A stretch of 28,714 nt of DNA from a virus (Duplodnaviria; Caudoviricetes). The DNA lies in IMG/VR virus record IMGVR_UViG_3300010376_000723, positions 1 to 28,714 of that record, one strand, 5' to 3'. Below, piece after piece: positions 2,825 to 27,366 of the stretch. Position 1 is the stretch's first letter, and the number at the start of each line of letters is the position of its first letter. Both the position numbers and the translations under genes were made by a program. The notes under the pieces are model-generated. The model worked only from the letters and a program-made list of their open reading frames with translations. It was not told where the DNA came from and searched no databases.

Positions 2825-4668
2825 TGGCTAATGGCGACGATGTACCCGAAGGCATGCAACGCTATCCGGTGACAAGCCCGGATGGCGTTCGCTTGTATGT
2901 CACGGCGCCGAAGGGCACACCGAACGATCAAATTTTGCAATACGCTGCAAAGCAGGCGCAAACCAATCCCGGCAAGATCAAGCCCGACGCGGACCTGACC
3001 GTACCGGAGGCGTTCGTTACCGGCATGACGGACCCGGCGGTCGGCGGCCATCAGCTTTACTCGCACCTCATGGAGTCGCCGGAGGAAGCGCACAAGGTCG
3101 ATACGCAAGTCCAGGCGCGCGAGGCGGATATTCGCGCCAGAGGTGGCGGCGGCATTTCTCGCCAAGTCGGCCGCGCGGCCATACAAGCGCCGCTGGCGCT
3201 GGCGACCGGCGCGCTCGGTCCGGCCGGCGCGGTTGGTGGCGGCGCCATATCCGGCTTAACAGAACCGGTTGCCAGCGGTGGCGATTACTGGACGCAAAAG
3301 AGTCTCGATACTCTCTTTGGTGGCGCCTTTGGTTTTGCCTTTGGCGGCGGCCTTGCCGGGACCATGGCTAAACGGCTCACGCCAGAGGCCCGCACCATGA
3401 TTCAGTCCGGCGTGAACCTTACGCCCGGTCAGATAATGGGCGGCCCGTTCCGGCGGATCGAGGAAGCCGCCTCTAGCCTGCCAATCCTCGGCAACTTCAT
3501 CCGCGGCGCCGAAGGCCGCGGCGTTGGCGCGTTCAACCGCTCTATCGCTAATCAGGCGCTGGCTCCAATCGGCGGTGCCTTGCCGAAAGGCGTCGAAGGT
3601 CGCGCCGCAGTCGGTGCTGTCGAAAGCCAACTTAGCGACGCTTACGATCAATTGTTGCCTCGCGTTCAAGTCAAGCTGGATGATGAATTTCAGAATAAGC
3701 TTCACGTTATCCGCGACAACGCGCGGGAGCTACCGACTCCGATACGCGAGCAATTTGAGAACATTTTGCAAAACCGGTTGGGCCGATACTTTGACCAGCC
3801 GCAGACGGCGCATGGTCCGATCCCGGCGACCGGCTATCAGCCGCCCGGCGGGCCGATGCCGCCGCCCGGCATGGGCCACAATCTAGGTCCGCAGCTACCG
3901 CCAGCCGGCGGGGTAGGTCCGCAGCTACCGTCGCAAAATCCGGCCGGCGGGCAGATGGGTCCGCAGATGGTCGGGCCGCGCCCGGTCAATGGCGAAACCT
4001 TCAAAGAAGGCGAGCGGGCGCTTCGCGACCTCGCTAACAAATATCGCCAGTCAAGTGACGTTGACCAACAGCGACTCGGTTGGTTTTTGGACGACGTGCG
4101 CGCCGCATTGCGTGACGCGTTGATCCGGCAAAACCCGAACGAGGCGGACCAGCTACGGAATATTGATCTTGGTTGGGCGATGCTTACCCGATTGCAGGAT
4201 GCGTCGAACCGGAGCGTTGCCAAGCTCGGCCGCTTCACGGCGGTTGATTTGCTGAACGCCGTCAAAAATCAGGACAAGACAATTCGCCATTCCGCTTTTG
4301 CCAAGGGCGATGCCTTGATGCAGACATACGCCGAGGCGGCGCAAAAGGTCCTGCCGCACACCTTGCCCGACTCCGGTACGACGGAACGCTACCTGACCAT
4401 CGAGGGCGCCAAGCTTGCCGGTAGCGCCGCGGCCGGCGGCGCCGCGGTCGAAGCCGGCGCCGTCTCTCCCGCTACTGTGTTGGCGGCCGGTGCCGGCCTG
4501 ACGGCCGCGGGCCTGCCGTACACCCGCGCCGGTCTTGCCGCCCTTAACTCGGTCCTGCGCAATCCGGCGCTCGGTCAATCGACGCTTGGCCGCGCGGCGC
4601 CTTACCTTGCGGTCGGCGCCGAACCGCTGGCATCGGGGCCGCCGCCCTATGGTGGGCCGCAACAGTGA
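2824..4668 (+). CDS. DNA transfer/ejection-like protein (614 aa)
   Basis: ATG 2824 overlaps the upstream TAA; Gly/Ala-rich hydrophobic stretches plus LTPGQ and PDSGT motifs seen in podovirus injection proteins. Confidence 0.65.
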   Translation: MANGDDVPEGMQRYPVTSPDGVRLYVTAPKGTPNDQILQYAAKQAQTNPGKIKPDADLTVPEAFVTGMTDPAVGGHQLYSHLMESPEEAHKVDTQVQAREADIRARGGGGISRQVGRAAIQAPLALATGALGPAGAVGGGAISGLTEPVASGGDYWTQKSLDTLFGGAFGFAFGGGLAGTMAKRLTPEARTMIQSGVNLTPGQIMGGPFRRIEEAASSLPILGNFIRGAEGRGVGAFNRSIANQALAPIGGALPKGVEGRAAVGAVESQLSDAYDQLLPRVQVKLDDEFQNKLHVIRDNARELPTPIREQFENILQNRLGRYFDQPQTAHGPIPATGYQPPGGPMPPPGMGHNLGPQLPPAGGVGPQLPSQNPAGGQMGPQMVGPRPVNGETFKEGERALRDLANKYRQSSDVDQQRLGWFLDDVRAALRDALIRQNPNEADQLRNIDLGWAMLTRLQDASNRSVAKLGRFTAVDLLNAVKNQDKTIRHSAFAKGDALMQTYAEAAQKVLPHTLPDSGTTERYLTIEGAKLAGSAAAGGAAVEAGAVSPATVLAAGAGLTAAGLPYTRAGLAALNSVLRNPALGQSTLGRAAPYLAVGAEPLASGPPPYGGPQQ

Positions 4669-5999
4669 GATTGCTTGTTATCGACGTGCAAGGCAACGCG
4701 TTGGATTTCTGCTTGCGGGAACAGGCCGTCGGCCACGAGGTAAAATGGTTCATTCGGCAAACGCCTAAGACGGAGCATGTCGGCCGCGGCCTAATCGACA
4801 TCGTGCCGGAATATCAGAAATGGTTGCTATGGTCGGATTGCATCTTTTGCGGCGACAACACCTATTACCTTCGCGACCTCGATGCGTTCCGTAAGGATAA
4901 CCCTACCGCGGCGGTGATCGCGCCGTCACAGGAAGCCGCGGCGTGGGAGCTAGACCGCAAAGTCGGGCAGGAGGTGTTTAAGAAGCACGGCATTGATACG
5001 ATACCGGGCAAGGAATTTTCCGACTACGACTCGGCCATCGCCTACGTCAAAAAGCACGACCAACGCTTTGTGTCGAAACCATCCGGCAACGTCGAGGACA
5101 AGGCCCTAAGCTACGTCAGCAAGTCGCCGTCCGACATGGTGTATATGCTGCAACGCTGGCAAAAGCTCGGCAAGCTGAAAACCTCGTTTATCTTGCAAGA
5201 GTTTGTCCCCGGAACGGAAATGGCAGTCGGCGGCTGGTTCGGTCCGGCCGGCTTCAATGGCGGATGGTGTGAGAACTTTGAATTTAAGAAGCTGATGAAT
5301 GGCGACCTCGGCGTGGCGACCGGCGAACAGGGTACGGTGTTGCGCGTGGTCAAGGCATCGAAGCTCGCCCGCAAGGTCCTGGCGCCGCTGGCCGACACGC
5401 TGCACGACATGAGCTATTGCGGCTATATTGATGTAAATTGCATCATTGACGACAACGGTACGCCCTGGCCGCTCGAATTTACCATGCGTCCCGGCTGGCC
5501 GACGTTCAACATTCAGCAGCCATTGTATGAAGGGAGCCTAGCCGAATGCCTCGCAGACTTAGCGAAGGGGATGGACCGGAGGAATTGGATCATGGACCGG
5601 ATAGCGGTCGGCGTGGTCCTGTCGATACCGGACTATCCGTATTCCCACCTGACGCGCCGGGAGGTGGTGGGGATTCCGCTGTACGGCCTGACGCCGGCAC
5701 TGTGGAAGCACTGGCATCCGGGCGAAATGAAGATGGGCGACGACGTGCCGGTAGTCCGGGCCGGGACGCACGCCAAGGTGCCTATGCCGGTGACGGCGGG
5801 GGATTACGTGGGCGTGATGACGGCGGTTTCGGACAACGTAAAGGACGCGGCTCTAACTTGCTACCGGCGCCTGGAAAAACTGACGATACCGAACTCGCCA
5901 ATGTACCGGACCGACATCGGCAAGCGGCTAGCGAAACAGCTACCGAAGATTCAGACACATGGCTACGCGGAGAAAATGGCTTACTCGCGGGAAAGCTAA
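4665..5999 (+). CDS. PurD-like (phosphoribosylamine-glycine ligase-like) ATP-grasp ligase, 444 aa
   Basis: GTGA coupling; ATP-grasp motifs FVSKP, ILQEFVPGTE, GDLGVATGEQG (cf. PurD GDTGPNTGGMG) and LEFTMRPGWP (cf. IEFNVRFGDP); lacks the PurD N-terminal GSGGREH motif. Confidence 0.8.
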   Translation: MRLLVIDVQGNALDFCLREQAVGHEVKWFIRQTPKTEHVGRGLIDIVPEYQKWLLWSDCIFCGDNTYYLRDLDAFRKDNPTAAVIAPSQEAAAWELDRKVGQEVFKKHGIDTIPGKEFSDYDSAIAYVKKHDQRFVSKPSGNVEDKALSYVSKSPSDMVYMLQRWQKLGKLKTSFILQEFVPGTEMAVGGWFGPAGFNGGWCENFEFKKLMNGDLGVATGEQGTVLRVVKASKLARKVLAPLADTLHDMSYCGYIDVNCIIDDNGTPWPLEFTMRPGWPTFNIQQPLYEGSLAECLADLAKGMDRRNWIMDRIAVGVVLSIPDYPYSHLTRREVVGIPLYGLTPALWKHWHPGEMKMGDDVPVVRAGTHAKVPMPVTAGDYVGVMTAVSDNVKDAALTCYRRLEKLTIPNSPMYRTDIGKRLAKQLPKIQTHGYAEKMAYSRES

Positions 6000-6235
6000 T
6001 CGAGGGCGCGGAGCTATCGCTTGATTGGTGCAACGAGATTTTGCGCCGGCCCCTGCCGCGGTCCGGTAACGATCCATCGTTTGCCGGCATCATGCGCGCC
6101 AAAAGCGCGGCCTCGCAAACGGTGCTTACCCTCGTTGGCCGGGTCAACGACCAAGAGCTACGCAAGCGCGCTCTTGATCGTCTGCCGGACTTGTTGAAGA
6201 TCATTCAGGATGAGGAACTAAAGGCGCTTAATTAA
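5546..6235 (+). CDS. Overprinted hypothetical protein (229 aa; disordered N-term, helical C-term)
   Basis: AGGGAG SD at 5531-5536, 9 nt before ATG 5546; the amphipathic helical C-terminal ~80 aa fill 5999-6235 and have no convincing SD-backed start of their own. Confidence 0.55.
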   Translation: MPRRLSEGDGPEELDHGPDSGRRGPVDTGLSVFPPDAPGGGGDSAVRPDAGTVEALASGRNEDGRRRAGSPGRDARQGAYAGDGGGLRGRDDGGFGQRKGRGSNLLPAPGKTDDTELANVPDRHRQAASETATEDSDTWLRGENGLLAGKLIEGAELSLDWCNEILRRPLPRSGNDPSFAGIMRAKSAASQTVLTLVGRVNDQELRKRALDRLPDLLKIIQDEELKALN

Positions 6236-6483
6236 ATATCGGCAAGCGTGTCGCCAAAGTTTTGATCTCTGATCTTGTGCCACTCCTTACCGGTCAGCTT
6301 GATTTTTGCCCCTTCCTCACGGGTCAGCTTGCGCGGTTTGAGTAGCGTCTTGCGCCGCGCCCGTAGCTTGTCGATTGCTGTGACGGCGCGGCTTAACTTG
6401 GCGTGCCACCTGTCCAGGGCGGCGGCGATTTGGAATAGCTCGACTTGCTTGCGCTCAAGCTGTTTGCTGGTCCTGTCTTGCAT
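6232..6483 (-). CDS. Hypothetical basic coiled-coil protein (83 aa)
   Basis: AAAGGA SD upstream; heptad-like sequence; converges with the late operon. Confidence 0.7.
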   Translation of the reverse strand: MQDRTSKQLERKQVELFQIAAALDRWHAKLSRAVTAIDKLRARRKTLLKPRKLTREEGAKIKLTGKEWHKIRDQNFGDTLADI

Positions 6484-6640
6484 GGCAACTTCCTTTGCTC
6501 CGGTCCGGCATTGGACCGTGGCAAGAGTCTACCACGCAAAAAATGGCGACCCCTCCAAACGCGGTTGAGTCGCCAAGTCAGCCACTGATTCAACAAACAA
6601 ACAAAAATCGAAAACGATGAATCACGCGGTTGTACACAAC

Positions 6641-6826
6641 CTACTTTTTTGCGAGGTGCCCGCCAAATTCTTGATCGTTGAATCCAAGCGGATAGAAATA
6701 ATCGACCCATCGCGCGGGTCCGCCCCCGAAGATCAAAAGCGGGGCGAACAGCAACAAAACGAGGATGATCGGCAGTAGCCAGAATTTTTTGCGCACCCGC
6801 AGGAAGCGCCAGAGTTCGAAAATCAT
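6641..6826 (-). CDS. DUF5989-like small membrane protein (61 aa)
   Basis: ELWRFLRVRKKFWLLPIILVLLL matches the remembered DUF5989 signature (ELWxFLxxRKKxWLLPI); start 1 nt after the upstream stop. Confidence 0.7.
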   Translation of the reverse strand: MIFELWRFLRVRKKFWLLPIILVLLLFAPLLIFGGGPARWVDYFYPLGFNDQEFGGHLAKK

Positions 6827-18954: not shown

Positions 18955-19878
18955 TTAGGCCGCCTTGCGATTGTTGTAAGCCGCGGCTTCCTTTTCAGCG
19001 TCGGTTAGCTCCGGTTCCGGCATATCGGCAATTGCCTTGCCGCGGAGATAGTCCGCCGCGGTTTGCGCACGATTGGCCGCGGTGAAGATTGCGCGCGGAT
19101 CATGCTTCAAAAGCTTTAGCCATGACGCCAGATAGGCGGCATGGTTTTCTGTTGACGCGCTGTTGTCAAAACCGAATTCCGCACAGAGGAACGCGGCGCC
19201 AAGTTCGGCAATTAATTCCTCGGCAGCATATTGCTGTTCACCGAACCGGCCGGAGAGGTCGCGATTGAGTCGCGACTTGTGACCAGTCCAGTGCACAAGC
19301 TCATGAAACACCGTGCCGTAAAATTCCGGTTGCGAGTGAAAGTCGGCAAAGCCGGGAGTCGTGATAAAGTCGCGCGAAGGAATGTAGCAGGGTTTACCCT
19401 TGCCTTCGCGAAAGTCCGCGCCAGTGGCGGCAATGAACGCGTCGGCTAATTCTTCGCGCGAGTCGGGATTTGCCTTACGATCTTTGGCCGGACCGAACCT
19501 AACCTCCGCCGGCAAATTTTCGCATTGGTCAACGTTGAAAACGCAAAATTCACGGATGAAAGGAATCCGCTTTGTTTCGTCGGTTTGTTTGTCCTTAATC
19601 GCGAGTTGTTTGAAAAAATACAACCGCGTCGATTCTTCGCCTTGCTTCACATAGCCGCCGGCTTTGGCCGCCGCGTCATAGGTAAGATAGCGCGGCGCTG
19701 CATAGCCTTTGTCGGCGGACAGCCAATAAAGCAAAACGTTGATGCCGCTATACGGCCGATTGGTCACCGCCGACATTGGAATTGCGGTGCCGGGATTCCA
19801 TCCGCGAACCCATGGCAGGGTTCCAGACTCAAGCTTTGCAACGATTTTGTCGGTTACTTTGCGATAGAGGTCGCGCAT
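18955..19878 (-). CDS. ardC: ArdC-like antirestriction protein (ssDNA-binding N-domain + zincin metalloprotease-like domain), 307 aa
   Basis: LESGTLPWVRGW, RPYSGINV, VFNVDQC, FHELVHWTGH, YAAEELIAELGA, HAAYLASW; AGGAG SD before ATG 19878. Confidence 0.93.
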   Translation of the reverse strand: MRDLYRKVTDKIVAKLESGTLPWVRGWNPGTAIPMSAVTNRPYSGINVLLYWLSADKGYAAPRYLTYDAAAKAGGYVKQGEESTRLYFFKQLAIKDKQTDETKRIPFIREFCVFNVDQCENLPAEVRFGPAKDRKANPDSREELADAFIAATGADFREGKGKPCYIPSRDFITTPGFADFHSQPEFYGTVFHELVHWTGHKSRLNRDLSGRFGEQQYAAEELIAELGAAFLCAEFGFDNSASTENHAAYLASWLKLLKHDPRAIFTAANRAQTAADYLRGKAIADMPEPELTDAEKEAAAYNNRKAA

Positions 19879-19920
19879 TAGTGGACTCCTTTGCTGGCCG
19901 CCGGCATGGCGGCTTCGCGC

Positions 19921-19950
19921 ATAGTGCACCTAGTGCACTCCAGAAGTCAA
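19921..19950 (-). promoter_or_regulatory. ardC promoter with palindromic operator in the spacer
   Basis: TTGACT-N18-CACTAT; AGTGCAC-CTA-GTGCACT at 19923-19939. Confidence 0.7.
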
Positions 19951-20444: not shown

Positions 20445-20747
20445 TTAGGTGGAACGAGGCGGCCAGCGTCTAGACCTTACCCGCGCTAGATTGATTGCAC
20501 TCTGTGCACGCCCCTCTGCGGTCTTAGGCCCCGTCGATAGGCCGCCATGGTATCGGCAACGGTTCCGGCCGGGAACGCATGGCATGCGGCAATAGGACCG
20601 TTTTAGATACCTTTCGACGGCCGATTGACCGAACCGCGCCGCGCGGGCAAGGCGCCCGGGAGTCTTTGCAAGTCGCGCGCCGCATAACCGTTTGATCGGA
20701 CTAGCGTCGCCAGTCATGTCGGATAACCGGGCAGACTTTCGGGACAT
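20445..20747 (-). CDS. HGGxSTG-domain protein
   Basis: LCGAR...CRMPCVPGRNRCRYHGGLSTGPKTAEGR. Confidence 0.85.
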   Translation of the reverse strand: MSRKSARLSDMTGDASPIKRLCGARLAKTPGRLARAARFGQSAVERYLKRSYCRMPCVPGRNRCRYHGGLSTGPKTAEGRAQSAINLARVRSRRWPPRST

Positions 20748-21051
20748 GGTTCCATCCGGTTATGGTTCGGCCGGGACCTCCGCCGGCAAGGCGAACTCAG
20801 GAACGGGCCGGGGCCGGGGCCAGGAGTGTAAATTTTTATCGCCCCTCCCCGCAACCGCACGCCATTTCAAGTCTTGTGCCTATAGTGCATCAAGCGTAGC
20901 TTAACTCCGCGGCGGCAGAGCATCCGTGAACCTGTCAGCAGTGGCGATGCCGTCGTGGGCGGCGGATAGGGTTGCCTGAGCCCGACAAGGCCAGGGTTGA
21001 ATGAGTCTCCAAGCCTCCGGCTTTCCGCCGCACTGATGTGCAGGAGCCGCA

Positions 21052-24743: not shown

Positions 24744-24929
24744 ATGACTAGCATGCCTAGCGAGTGGCCTGACCCGCAATATGACGAAAAGACTCAGAGC
24801 TTGCTGGTGACGTTCCCGAACGGCCGATCCTATGTCTATGAGGGCGTCCCGCCGGACATCGCCAAGAAGTACGCCGAGTCCGACGATAGGGGCGTATTCT
24901 TCAATGTCTTTATCCGCGGCCAATACTGA
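24744..24929 (+). CDS. KTSC-domain protein (61 aa)
   Basis: YDEKTQSLLVTFPNGRSYVYEGVP...GVFFNVFIRGQY. Confidence 0.88.
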   Translation: MTSMPSEWPDPQYDEKTQSLLVTFPNGRSYVYEGVPPDIAKKYAESDDRGVFFNVFIRGQY

Positions 24930-25130: not shown

Positions 25131-25346
25131 ATGGGCGAGGTGTTGAAGTTTCCCGAACCGGATGTAATCGAACTGCGCAAAGCGCCCGGCGCTACGTTCC
25201 GCAAGCCCGACTTACTGCTGTGTGTGCGGCAGTATTTCGACCATGACCTAGGCAAACACTTCAACGAACACTTGCCGGCCGGCGACCGCTTCCTCGCCTA
25301 TCTGTCGCTGCTCGGCTTCAAGGTGGTGCCACGCGATGACGCCTGA
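25131..25346 (+). CDS. Hypothetical protein (71 aa)
   Basis: Overlaps the terL start. Confidence 0.65.
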   Translation: MGEVLKFPEPDVIELRKAPGATFRKPDLLLCVRQYFDHDLGKHFNEHLPAGDRFLAYLSLLGFKVVPRDDA

Positions 25347-27366
25347 AACCGAACAAGCCATCCTCAAGCTCGGGCGCGACCGCTACTTGGCGCACCAAGC
25401 GTTGTTTCGCCATCGCCACGGCGACACGACGCCGCCGTTTCACCGTGATCTGATCGACATGTGGCACAGCCGCGACCCCTATGGCCTGGCTATGGTGTTT
25501 CGCGAGGGCGGCAAGTCCACGATTGCCGAGGAGTCGTTCGTCATTGGCTCCGGCTATCAGCTATTCCACAATGCCATGATAATCGGCTCGACGGAGAAGC
25601 GAGCGTTTGAGCGGTTGCGAGCAATCAAACATGAAATCGAACACAACGAACTTGTCGAAGCCCTGTTCGGTCGTCTTGTTGGGGCCACGTGGAACGAGGG
25701 CGAAATCATACTCGCCAACGGAGTTCGCATTATTGCCCTTGGCCGAGGTCAGAGTCTACGTGGCACGAAGCATCTACATTTCCGGCCCGACTTCTGCTTC
25801 TGTGACGACATTGAGGAAGAAGAAAACGTCAATACGCCAGAGGCGCGTGAGGAAACACTTTCTTGGTTCATGCGCGTCGTTATCCCCGCCATGGACAAGT
25901 GGGGCCGCATTCGCGTCAACGCTACGCCGCTTGACCGCGAGGCATTGCCCTACGCGTTGCAGCGCCGGCTTGGCTGGAAAACTCTTGTTGTCCCGATTGA
26001 GTACGTTGATGAACACGGCGAGCGGCAAGCCGCGTGGCCGTCGCGCTATCCGCTAGACTGGATCGACGCCAAGAAACGCGCGTTCGAGTCTGTCGGCAAG
26101 CTTGACGACTACATGCGCGAATACATGTGCGTTGCCGAGGACCCGAAACGCAAATCCTTCACCGCCGACATGTTCAAGATCGAACCGCGCGTTCGCACGT
26201 GGCACCCCACCTATGCGTTCCTTGACCCGGCGCGGACCACAAAAGTCACATCCGCCTCGACCGGTTGGGCGGTGTGGTCGTGGGTTGGCAATCGGTTGAT
26301 TGTGTGGGACGGCGGCGGCGGCTTTTGGAAGCCGGACGAAATTGTCGGCAAGCTGTTTACCCTCGACCAAGAGTACAAATGTCTCACCATTGGCGTCGAA
26401 GAAACCGGCTTGAACGAGTTCCTTATGCAGCCGATTCGGCAGGAAATGTTGCGCCGCGGCGTGCTGCTGCCGGTCCGGGCGATGAACGCGCCGCGCGACA
26501 AAAACCGCTTCATCGAGGCATTGCAGCCGTTTTTTGTGGCCGGCGAAATCACTTTTGCCAAAGACCTGCCGGAGCTACGCGCGCAATTCCTGAACTTTCC
26601 CTCCGGCAAGATCGACGGCCCGAACGCGCTGGCCTACGCGCTGTTGATGCGCGGCGGTCAAGCGGTGTATGGCGAGTTCTGCGGCGATCATGTTGCTATC
26701 GACGTGCACTTGCGCGCCAACGAACTTGCCTTCCTGTGCCTCGGCGCCCGCAACGGCGTGACCACGGCGGCGCTGTGCCAGTACTCACACGGTAGCTTGC
26801 GCATTGCCCGCGATTGGCTGCGCGAGGGCGAACCGACCGCAACCGTTGACTCCATCGTAAAGGAGGCTCGCCTTGTCCATCAAAACCTCCGCCTCCTGGC
26901 GACCGGCGATCATTGGAGCGGTTATAATCACCTTGGCTTGCGTGGCGCTGTGGCAAAAATACCGGACGAACTGCACCGCGGCGGAACGCCCGAAATGGGG
27001 CGAAACGAACTTCGGGAGTTGTTTCGTTCGCGCGCCGGGGATGTCGGACGCGTTCAAGTGAGCGTTGATGCGCGTTGGGTGTTGAACGGCTTCGCCGCCG
27101 GTTACTGCTACGGCGTTGGCCGCAACGGCACCCTGACGGCGCAACCGATTGACGACTATTACCGCACCCTCATGGAGCCAATCGAAAGCTTTGCCGCATT
27201 ACTGCAATCGGGTATTACGGACACCCGCAACTATCAGCGCACGGCGAGCGGCCAACTCTATGTGTCGGCGCTGCCGGGCCAAAGGGGAGTCGCCAATGCA
27301 AAGGATAGTTTCTTCGATCCTGGCGCTGTTTCTGATTTTGGCCCTGTATCTGCTCGTCGTCACTAA
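25336..27366 (+). CDS. terL: Terminase large subunit with C-terminal extension (676 aa)
   Basis: Walker A FREGGKST, GQSLRG...RPD, Walker B FCFCDDIEE, ATPL, REYMC; nuclease YAFLDPA, GVEE, FPSGKIDGPNAL. Confidence 0.92.
   Translation: MTPETEQAILKLGRDRYLAHQALFRHRHGDTTPPFHRDLIDMWHSRDPYGLAMVFREGGKSTIAEESFVIGSGYQLFHNAMIIGSTEKRAFERLRAIKHEIEHNELVEALFGRLVGATWNEGEIILANGVRIIALGRGQSLRGTKHLHFRPDFCFCDDIEEEENVNTPEAREETLSWFMRVVIPAMDKWGRIRVNATPLDREALPYALQRRLGWKTLVVPIEYVDEHGERQAAWPSRYPLDWIDAKKRAFESVGKLDDYMREYMCVAEDPKRKSFTADMFKIEPRVRTWHPTYAFLDPARTTKVTSASTGWAVWSWVGNRLIVWDGGGGFWKPDEIVGKLFTLDQEYKCLTIGVEETGLNEFLMQPIRQEMLRRGVLLPVRAMNAPRDKNRFIEALQPFFVAGEITFAKDLPELRAQFLNFPSGKIDGPNALAYALLMRGGQAVYGEFCGDHVAIDVHLRANELAFLCLGARNGVTTAALCQYSHGSLRIARDWLREGEPTATVDSIVKEARLVHQNLRLLATGDHWSGYNHLGLRGAVAKIPDELHRGGTPEMGRNELRELFRSRAGDVGRVQVSVDARWVLNGFAAGYCYGVGRNGTLTAQPIDDYYRTLMEPIESFAALLQSGITDTRNYQRTASGQLYVSALPGQRGVANAKDSFFDPGAVSDFGPVSARRH

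Follow-up and report, generated by a model that had tools for sequence, protein, structure and literature searches.

An open reading frame (ORF) that starts inside the gene for a PurD-like ATP-grasp ligase, in its −1 frame, and runs past the end of that gene is very probably a real, separately initiated gene, judging from its conservation across an uncultured group of phages. It is probably also undescribed. The window, i.e., the whole stretch of DNA analysed (28,714 nt), is a 28.7-kb phage fragment whose relatives measure 38–46 kb (~43 kb). It contains a virion operon ending in the ligase gene, an integrase, a block with ERF and a repressor, and the gene for the terminase large subunit (TerL) at 25336. 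The features referred to below are:

4665..5999 (+): PurD/GARS-like ATP-grasp ligase (444 aa), which closes the virion operon and provides the host frame
5531..5536 (+): Shine-Dalgarno sequence AGGGAG of the nested gene, formed on ligase codons Glu289-Gly290-Ser291
5546..5548 (+): start codon ATG of the nested gene, spanning ligase codons 294–295
5546..5999 (+): overprinted N-terminal arm, ~150 aa, Gly/Asp/Arg-rich; stop-free in all 60 overlap loci
5984..6235 (+): helical hairpin of ~83 aa, conserved, with 119 homologues; a candidate core for small-terminase oligomerisation
20445..20747 (−): HGGxSTG-domain gene (NF041373, E 1.2e-12), separate from the nested gene
25336..27366 (+): TerL, 676 aa (phrog_38, E 3e-55)

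The nested frame and its host gene

The sequence-only reading had described a 229-codon ORF overlapping the ligase by 454 nt and preceded by its own Shine-Dalgarno sequence. Indeed, the ORF at 5546–6235 (+) encodes 229 aa in the −1 (equivalently +2) frame of the 444-aa ORF at 4665–5999, the overlap spans 5546–5999, and AGGGAG lies 9 nt ahead of the ATG. An in-frame TGA is found upstream at 5528–5530. Residues 1–150 contain 30 G, 18 R and 17 D, in agreement with the composition noted earlier, and this arm is probably disordered. Overprinting is limited to the arm of ~150 aa; the helical domain is situated outside the ligase, and elsewhere it is found as a separate gene. The observation that the domain lacks a good start of its own was also borne out, as the in-frame TTG at 6041 and ATG at 6092, near the end of the ligase, would cut helix 1. 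Gene callers choose the short form, and database entries of 64–71 aa begin inside helix 1. A contig from sequencing run X1, possibly the source sample, spans 5339–6300 with no difference and no indel. No promoter-like site was seen in 5200–6700.

The ligase matches the Pfam families GARS_A (E 1.3e-9) and GARS_C (E 3.8e-6, below the GARS_C cut-off). Solved structures of PurD, the glycinamide ribonucleotide synthetase (TIGR00877, PF01071/PF02843), align with its residues 82–425, with E 7e-16 for the PDB entry 2xcl. Unlike members of the PurD equivalog, the phage ligase scores far under the TIGR00877 cut-off (81.4 bits, cut-off 288) and is located in a virion operon; it may modify virion or host molecules instead of making purines. 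In frame 0 it aligns with cellular PurD across the entire overlap and the −1-frame arm matched no family in Pfam, PHROG and NCBIfam scans; the host frame is therefore the older one. The ligase gene (4665–5999) closes the virion operon after ejection-type genes, and a GNAT gene is found a few genes upstream in MW202796 and in one near relative (G001). MW202796 is the only record of the cultured collection with a close ligase, which is unannotated there and has no overlap, and a search of GTDB genomes returned one 2.8-kb contig only. A viral phosphoribosylamine-glycine ligase (K11787-type) is reported as an auxiliary metabolic gene in the portion of PMC11360552 used here, where overlaps are not a topic. 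We note as a caution that phage “purD” auxiliary-gene calls may represent a virion-operon ligase with a hidden gene.

Absence of stops and reduced synonymous change

For the window alone, the probability of a stop-free frame was ~0.03 by synonymous resampling, which is modestly unusual, and the test therefore needed to be comparative. A search with the ligase gave 75 viral loci with 51–85% identity, to which four more and MW202796 were added, and two truncated loci (L057 and L058) were dropped before all counts. The 79 coding sequences left represent 47 lineages below 90% identity, of which 39 have the helical domain following in the −1 frame and eight, used as controls, do not.

Stops in homologous loci would have spoken against the gene. 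After residue 300 the frame is open in 60 of 60 loci with the domain and in 0 of 19 without it. Between ligase residues 300 and 440, the 39 domain lineages contain no stops, where 155.9 are expected from synonymous resampling. For residues 300–345 only, the numbers are 0 and 51.7, which excludes the later in-frame GTG and ATG at 346 and 352 as the start. The controls contained 50 stops vs. 50.5 expected, and the same frame upstream of the overlap contained 187 vs. 211.6. One alternative is that GC-rich codon use alone keeps the long frame open and that only a short gene near 6041–6092 is real. The window-only probability and the short form chosen by gene callers would both fit with this; the complete lack of stops in the domain lineages, set against control and upstream counts near expectation, makes it extremely improbable.

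Synonymous variation is reduced as well. Fourfold-degenerate sites differ at 511 of 1572 positions (32.5%) inside the overlap vs. 1232 of 2501 (49.3%) outside, with less change inside in 23 of 27 disjoint pairs, which are not fully independent because several come from one clade. In the controls the corresponding values were 160/353 (45.3%) and 342/674 (50.7%; p 0.10). The composition of the encoded protein points in the same direction: Asp and Glu account for 17.5% of residues in the overlapping −1 frame vs. 7.2% upstream, being higher in 38 of 38 lineages, compared to 9.2% in the corresponding region and 7.6% upstream in the controls. Relative to what this frame would encode by default, the arm is thus shifted towards acidic and not towards basic residues (net charge −5 in the window), and it keeps its composition more than its sequence. 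From these alignments we consider it confirmed that the second frame is open far beyond chance and under selection.

Translation start

Stops in the −1 frame occur up to ligase residue 296 and then cease. The triplet at position 294 is ATG in 32 of the 39 lineages, GTG in four, CTG in two and TTG in one; as background for the ATG, A is the last base of only 34% of upstream E/Q/K codons. In L010, L014, and L073, which have lost this ATG, a replacement ATG is found at 296 or 299, 2–5 codons downstream. Of 37 overlap lineages, 25 encode Gly290 by GGA or GGG, vs. 30% elsewhere in the gene. The median pairing energy was −6.4 kcal/mol vs. a background of −2.5 kcal/mol, calculated for pairing with the anti-Shine-Dalgarno core. 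As a counterpoint, the ATG is also present in four of the eight control lineages, and the Shine-Dalgarno sequence is weak in ~10 of the 39 overlap lineages. The proposal of a nested gene with its own start is backed by the conserved ATG and Shine-Dalgarno sequence, the turnover of start codons and the lowered synonymous change.

A programmed −1 frameshift near ligase residue 295, producing a fusion of the ligase and the domain, had been offered as an alternative. Such frameshifts are found in tailed phages, e.g., in lambda G/GT and T7 10A/10B, and there, too, a −1-frame product runs past the stop of the first gene. The −1 frame is the usual recoding frame, and the weakness of the Shine-Dalgarno-like motif in a quarter or so of the lineages would also be compatible with recoding. 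However, in line with the earlier failure to find a canonical slippery heptamer in the window, no heptamer position is common to more than two of the 39 lineages, and single-tRNA A/U runs occur in at most six at any site. The nested gene further differs from the tailed-phage examples by its conserved Shine-Dalgarno sequence and start codon and by a frame that is already open 150 codons before the stop. The downstream replacement of lost ATG codons also argues against a frameshift, as does a copy that has separated from the ligase (L064, see below) and has retained the Shine-Dalgarno sequence, the start codon and the first residues. Finally, the fusion product would be without the C domain of the ligase. 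We find a frameshift very improbable.

The helical domain

The non-overlapping part had been read as helical. AlphaFold2 (residues 142–229, 38 sequences) predicts two helices, H3–26 and H36–87, with a mean pLDDT of 86.8. This layout is a helical hairpin with an extension helix, a fold that is not specific to terminase small subunits (TerS). A profile search with the domain found 119 proteins, many of 92–110 aa with their own N-terminus; the forms of ~100 aa have only 10–25 residues ahead of helix 1. Pfam and PHROG scans of 38 domain sequences gave scattered chance matches only and no family. Profile searches of the PDB found nothing, Foldseek found nothing in BFVD and PDB at E ≤ 0.001, cultured phages contained no match, and a search of NCBIfam gave no TerS match. 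Neither Pfam nor PHROG detected a helix-turn-helix, and the arm is G/D/R-rich. Prediction of a four-copy complex of the domain gave scores of 0.40, 0.39, and 0.46 relative to a mark of 0.42 (controls 0.00), and we do not count this as evidence.

In the ESM Atlas, terminase small subunits are two of the four nearest named clusters of a 102-aa form (0.88), which is a lead only. The top match of the window domain is DnaB_bind (0.91, 153 shared features), and lambda P scores 0.90 with a short form; according to the text of the Atlas, scores of this kind are often due to chance.

In the arm, the motif RGRP[PR]K, which we take to be the core of an AT-hook, occurs in four of 39 lineages, at two positions and over different ligase residues, vs. 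0.002 expected from shuffling; the motif was chosen after being seen, and it is absent from the window and the 35 other lineages.

Occurrence of the domain apart from the ligase

Most lineages (39 of 47) have the overlap. A quick ligase tree, from which the partial loci L069 and L075 were left out, needs seven changes of state, at least five of them forced by well-supported branches (with the root taken as given), and these changes fit an old overlap that was lost repeatedly. In a domain tree, likewise a quick search and with few columns, the ~100-aa forms nest among the overlap forms. To judge from the ligase tree, the overlap is probably ancestral.

The routes out of the overlap differ. In L064 (genome G006), what is presumably an HNH/endonuclease VII-like gene, labelled from its motifs (L064:5225–5860, −), is inserted immediately past the stop codon of the ligase and separates the ligase from an unstacked copy of the domain gene. 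The −1 frame of this ligase has four stops, and the domain gene is a separate ORF of 155 aa with AGGGAG and TTG. Its first eight residues all equal those at the ligase-internal start; six of these eight codons carry synonymous changes in the −1 frame, and what they encode in the ligase frame has diverged. Of the arm, the final ~45 residues are also retained and the rest is mostly deleted. As the retained 3′ piece can still be read as ligase in frame 0, the unstacked copy may be a recent recombinant. In G004 (95% complete), a 103-aa form follows the last ejection-type gene with ATGA coupling, and no ligase was found in this genome. In L077, a ~100-aa form begins at the ligase end with an overlap of a few bases.

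Relocated copies were found in G005, G007, and G017 (E ~1e-6; G007 5.5e-4), G016 (E 3e-15), G009 (E 8e-4), and G010. In the G005/G007/G017 lineage and in G009 the copy is directly upstream of a primase-helicase gene. The G016 copy is divergent and 1.7 kb upstream of TerL, with an HGGxSTG gene directly after it. The G010 copy, also divergent, is ~0.8 kb upstream of TerL and fused behind an HGGxSTG domain, which was unmatched in cultured phages. It is weak by profile (E 0.36; hhalign probability 20.7, E 0.001), but pairwise comparison with L061 gave E 4e-7, and the ligases of the two belong to the same supported clade. A single-sequence fold of the G010 fusion (pLDDT 49) was not usable. The arm is thus partly dispensable, being absent in the ~100-aa forms and mostly deleted in L064, and it appears exchangeable, with HGGxSTG in its place in G010.

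Of the 20 near-complete genomes examined, 19 yielded a copy of the domain (weak matches in G009 and G010), in a census that is biased because most genomes were reached via the ligase or the domain. A fairer count is five of eight non-overlap lineages, the misses being G008, a 31% fragment and the distant MW202796. G008 is complete but rearranged, and no copy was detectable; just upstream of its TerL is what we take from motifs to be a transposase-like gene (L135:9507–10301). Five incomplete TerL records (19–66% complete) gave no domain match and are too incomplete to inform.

Five proteins (P0003, P0009, P0035, P0072, and P0086) have new N-termini and keep an overlap-derived segment resembling LPDVP.GYW before the helical domain; P0072-type loci were not found in viral contigs. 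In G009 (L137:4860–6875), four tandem paralogous genes with Ala/Tyr/Arg-rich repeats are situated directly upstream of the relocated domain gene.

Comparison with known gene overlaps

Same-strand overlaps in phages have long been known, such as E in D and B in A of phiX174, Rz1 in Rz of lambda, and 18.7 in 18.5 of T7. Like these, the nested gene has its own start inside an older gene, both frames are under purifying selection, and the composition in the new frame is biased. Unlike in these, overprinting affects just the N-terminal arm of a gene that is otherwise independent, the host gene encodes a PurD-like enzyme, and the overlap has been undone at least five times by different routes. According to the part of PMC8903798 used here, the median length of overlaps in annotated DNA viruses is 15.6 nt, with those of the +2 type nearly all measuring 1 or 4 nt; PMC8227390, as far as the part used extends, covers small eukaryotic viruses and has phiX174 in its references. 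We found no description of the present overlap among the open-access papers listed by our searches.

DNA phages rarely have long overlaps on the same strand, and the nested gene is shortened by gene callers. Whatever its function, the gene provides a rare comparative series comprising 39 overlap lineages, a single domain swap, one unstacking based on duplication, and losses on at least five independent occasions. With this series it can be tested whether an overprinted arm acquires a function or serves only as the source of a start codon.

Possible function of the nested gene

The sequence-only reading suggested that the nested gene encodes a ligase substrate, a ligase partner or the missing terminase small subunit. 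The last is the best of the three, and the evidence for it is still circumstantial. No conserved small-subunit gene was found upstream of TerL in the 22 loci inspected, and none of the 143 small ORFs of G001, G004, and G008 matched a TerS PHROG, although TerS genes are often unrecognisable. The lack of a recognised TerS near TerL, the hairpin core and the TerL-proximal relocations lead us to a TerS-like core with an exchangeable N-terminal module. The presence of the domain in nearly all near-complete genomes and in most of the non-overlap lineages also supports a TerS role. Lesser leads in the same direction are the two TerS clusters in the Atlas and the RGRP[PR]K motif. Against it stand the lack of any sequence match to a TerS in Pfam, PHROG, NCBIfam or PDB and of a Foldseek match in BFVD or PDB, the missing profile similarity to DUF1804, the acidic character of the arm and its lack of the RGRP motif in 35 of 39 lineages, the lack of a detected helix-turn-helix, the two relocations upstream of primase-helicase genes together with the DnaB_bind match in the Atlas, and the complete genome G008 without a detectable copy as well as the weak copies of G009 and G010. 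On balance, we give about an even chance to the nested protein being a TerS-like core with an overprinted, acidic, disordered arm. We do not file it as a member of TerS; it is likely only to work like one.

The TerS of P22, Sf6, SF6, PaP3, E217, and HK97 are reviewed in PMC9611059, the consulted part of which describes a helix-turn-helix common to all TerS, sizes of 15–21 kDa, and genes that may be remote from TerL (~58 kb in E217). Within what that part covers, the nested protein resembles TerS in its helical-hairpin core with extension helix and short tail, its variable N-terminal module, its low sequence conservation and a gene possibly far from TerL. It differs in having no helix-turn-helix, in an N-terminal arm that is overprinted, acidic and dispensable, in short forms of ~100 aa that fall under 15–21 kDa, and in that neither its sequence nor its fold could be matched. 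Assembly into a ring (8–12 subunits) and binding to TerL are features of the known system and are only predicted for the nested protein. The closest cultured TerL matches are D3112-like and N4-like (≤28% identity). In D3112-like phages such as H70, a helix-turn-helix gene of the DUF1804 family (PF08822) lies upstream of TerL. DUF1804 shares with the nested gene a helical C-terminal half and a TerL from among the closest cultured ones (28% identity). However, only DUF1804 has the helix-turn-helix, and its profile shows no similarity to the domain (E 0.85–0.93, no better than a reversed control).

Ribosomes probably start at ATG 5546 on the late mRNA, using the gene's own ribosome-binding site, and produce a 229-aa protein. 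If the TerS-like reading holds, the hairpins would assemble into a ring that recognises the packaging site and recruits TerL, with the arm occupying the place that the helix-turn-helix has in other TerS. A more elaborate scenario, which we regard as possible but doubtful, is that an essential packaging protein swapped its helix-turn-helix for an arm arising de novo in an alternative frame of a captured PurD-like gene, and that this arm independently gained AT-hook-like motifs, is interchangeable with HGGxSTG and partly survives unstacking; the loci would then trace how an overprinted domain on a core phage gene was born, retained and undone. With a TerS-like function, the nested gene would fill the place of a core gene missing throughout an uncultured phage group and define a type of TerS without helix-turn-helix.

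Three other functions were weighed against a TerS-like one. If the nested protein were a ligase partner or substrate, the overlap would couple the expression of the two, and the acidic arm would act as a chaperone of the enzyme or as a source of carboxylates to be ligated. ATP-grasp enzymes activate carboxylates, the Asp/Glu enrichment is seen in every lineage compared, and the overlap is both the majority and the probable ancestral state. This tie to the ligase is weakened by the presence of the domain in G004, where no ligase was found, and by its repeated departure from the ligase: it stands apart in five lineages, the ~100-aa forms have no arm, and the ligase persists after arm loss. We therefore judge such a partnership unlikely. 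A replication accessory, i.e., a helicase- or primase-binding hairpin instead of a packaging protein, would account for the copies next to primase-helicase genes and for the DnaB_bind and lambda P scores, which the Atlas itself calls often chance. It is improbable in view of the domain's usual place at the end of the virion operon and of the different replication modules of its carriers (replisome-organiser type in the window, primase-helicase in G005 and G009, DnaB-like in G016).

Some other late function, as a virion or ejection part or in host takeover, with the arm being mostly a frozen spacer that gives the start codon and is selected only for solubility, is rather unlikely but draws on several observations. 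The gene comes after ejection-protein genes and shows ATGA coupling in G004, and the arm is often deleted or replaced and conserves composition more than sequence. On the other hand, at least four lineages have relocated the domain into a leftward non-virion operon, which is unusual for a virion part; the N-terminal residues kept in L064 and the repeated RGRP motif suggest that the arm has some role; and the missing TerS would be left unexplained.

Some further observations concern the HGGxSTG genes and the surroundings of TerL. HGGxSTG domains occur in TerS-like proteins. A literature search found no association of HGGxSTG with TerS, and comparison of the domain with a PHROG TerS family gave E 0.25 only. 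Upstream of the HGGxSTG gene of the window, positions 20750–20900 contain G/C runs and an A/T tract, and similar G/C-run stretches adjoin the HGGxSTG/domain genes of G010 (L141:5500–5620) and G016 (L153:1930–2050); the stretch is a possible packaging-initiation region. MW202796, a phage without the nested gene, has a 205-aa gene ~440 nt upstream of TerL (L076:18921–19538) that by eye looks like a TerS with helix-turn-helix plus helical part; it had no Pfam or PHROG match and no profile similarity to the domain. TerL of the window has a C-terminal extension of ~230 aa past the part matching cultured phages. A 61-aa gene at 24744–24929 (+), presumably KTSC-like (phrog_8113 and phrog_3292), recurs in most of the 22 loci at a distance of ≤900 nt upstream of TerL. 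The window also carries an ArdC-family anti-restriction gene at 18955–19929 (−), with the Pfam domains ArdcN and MPTase-PolyVal.
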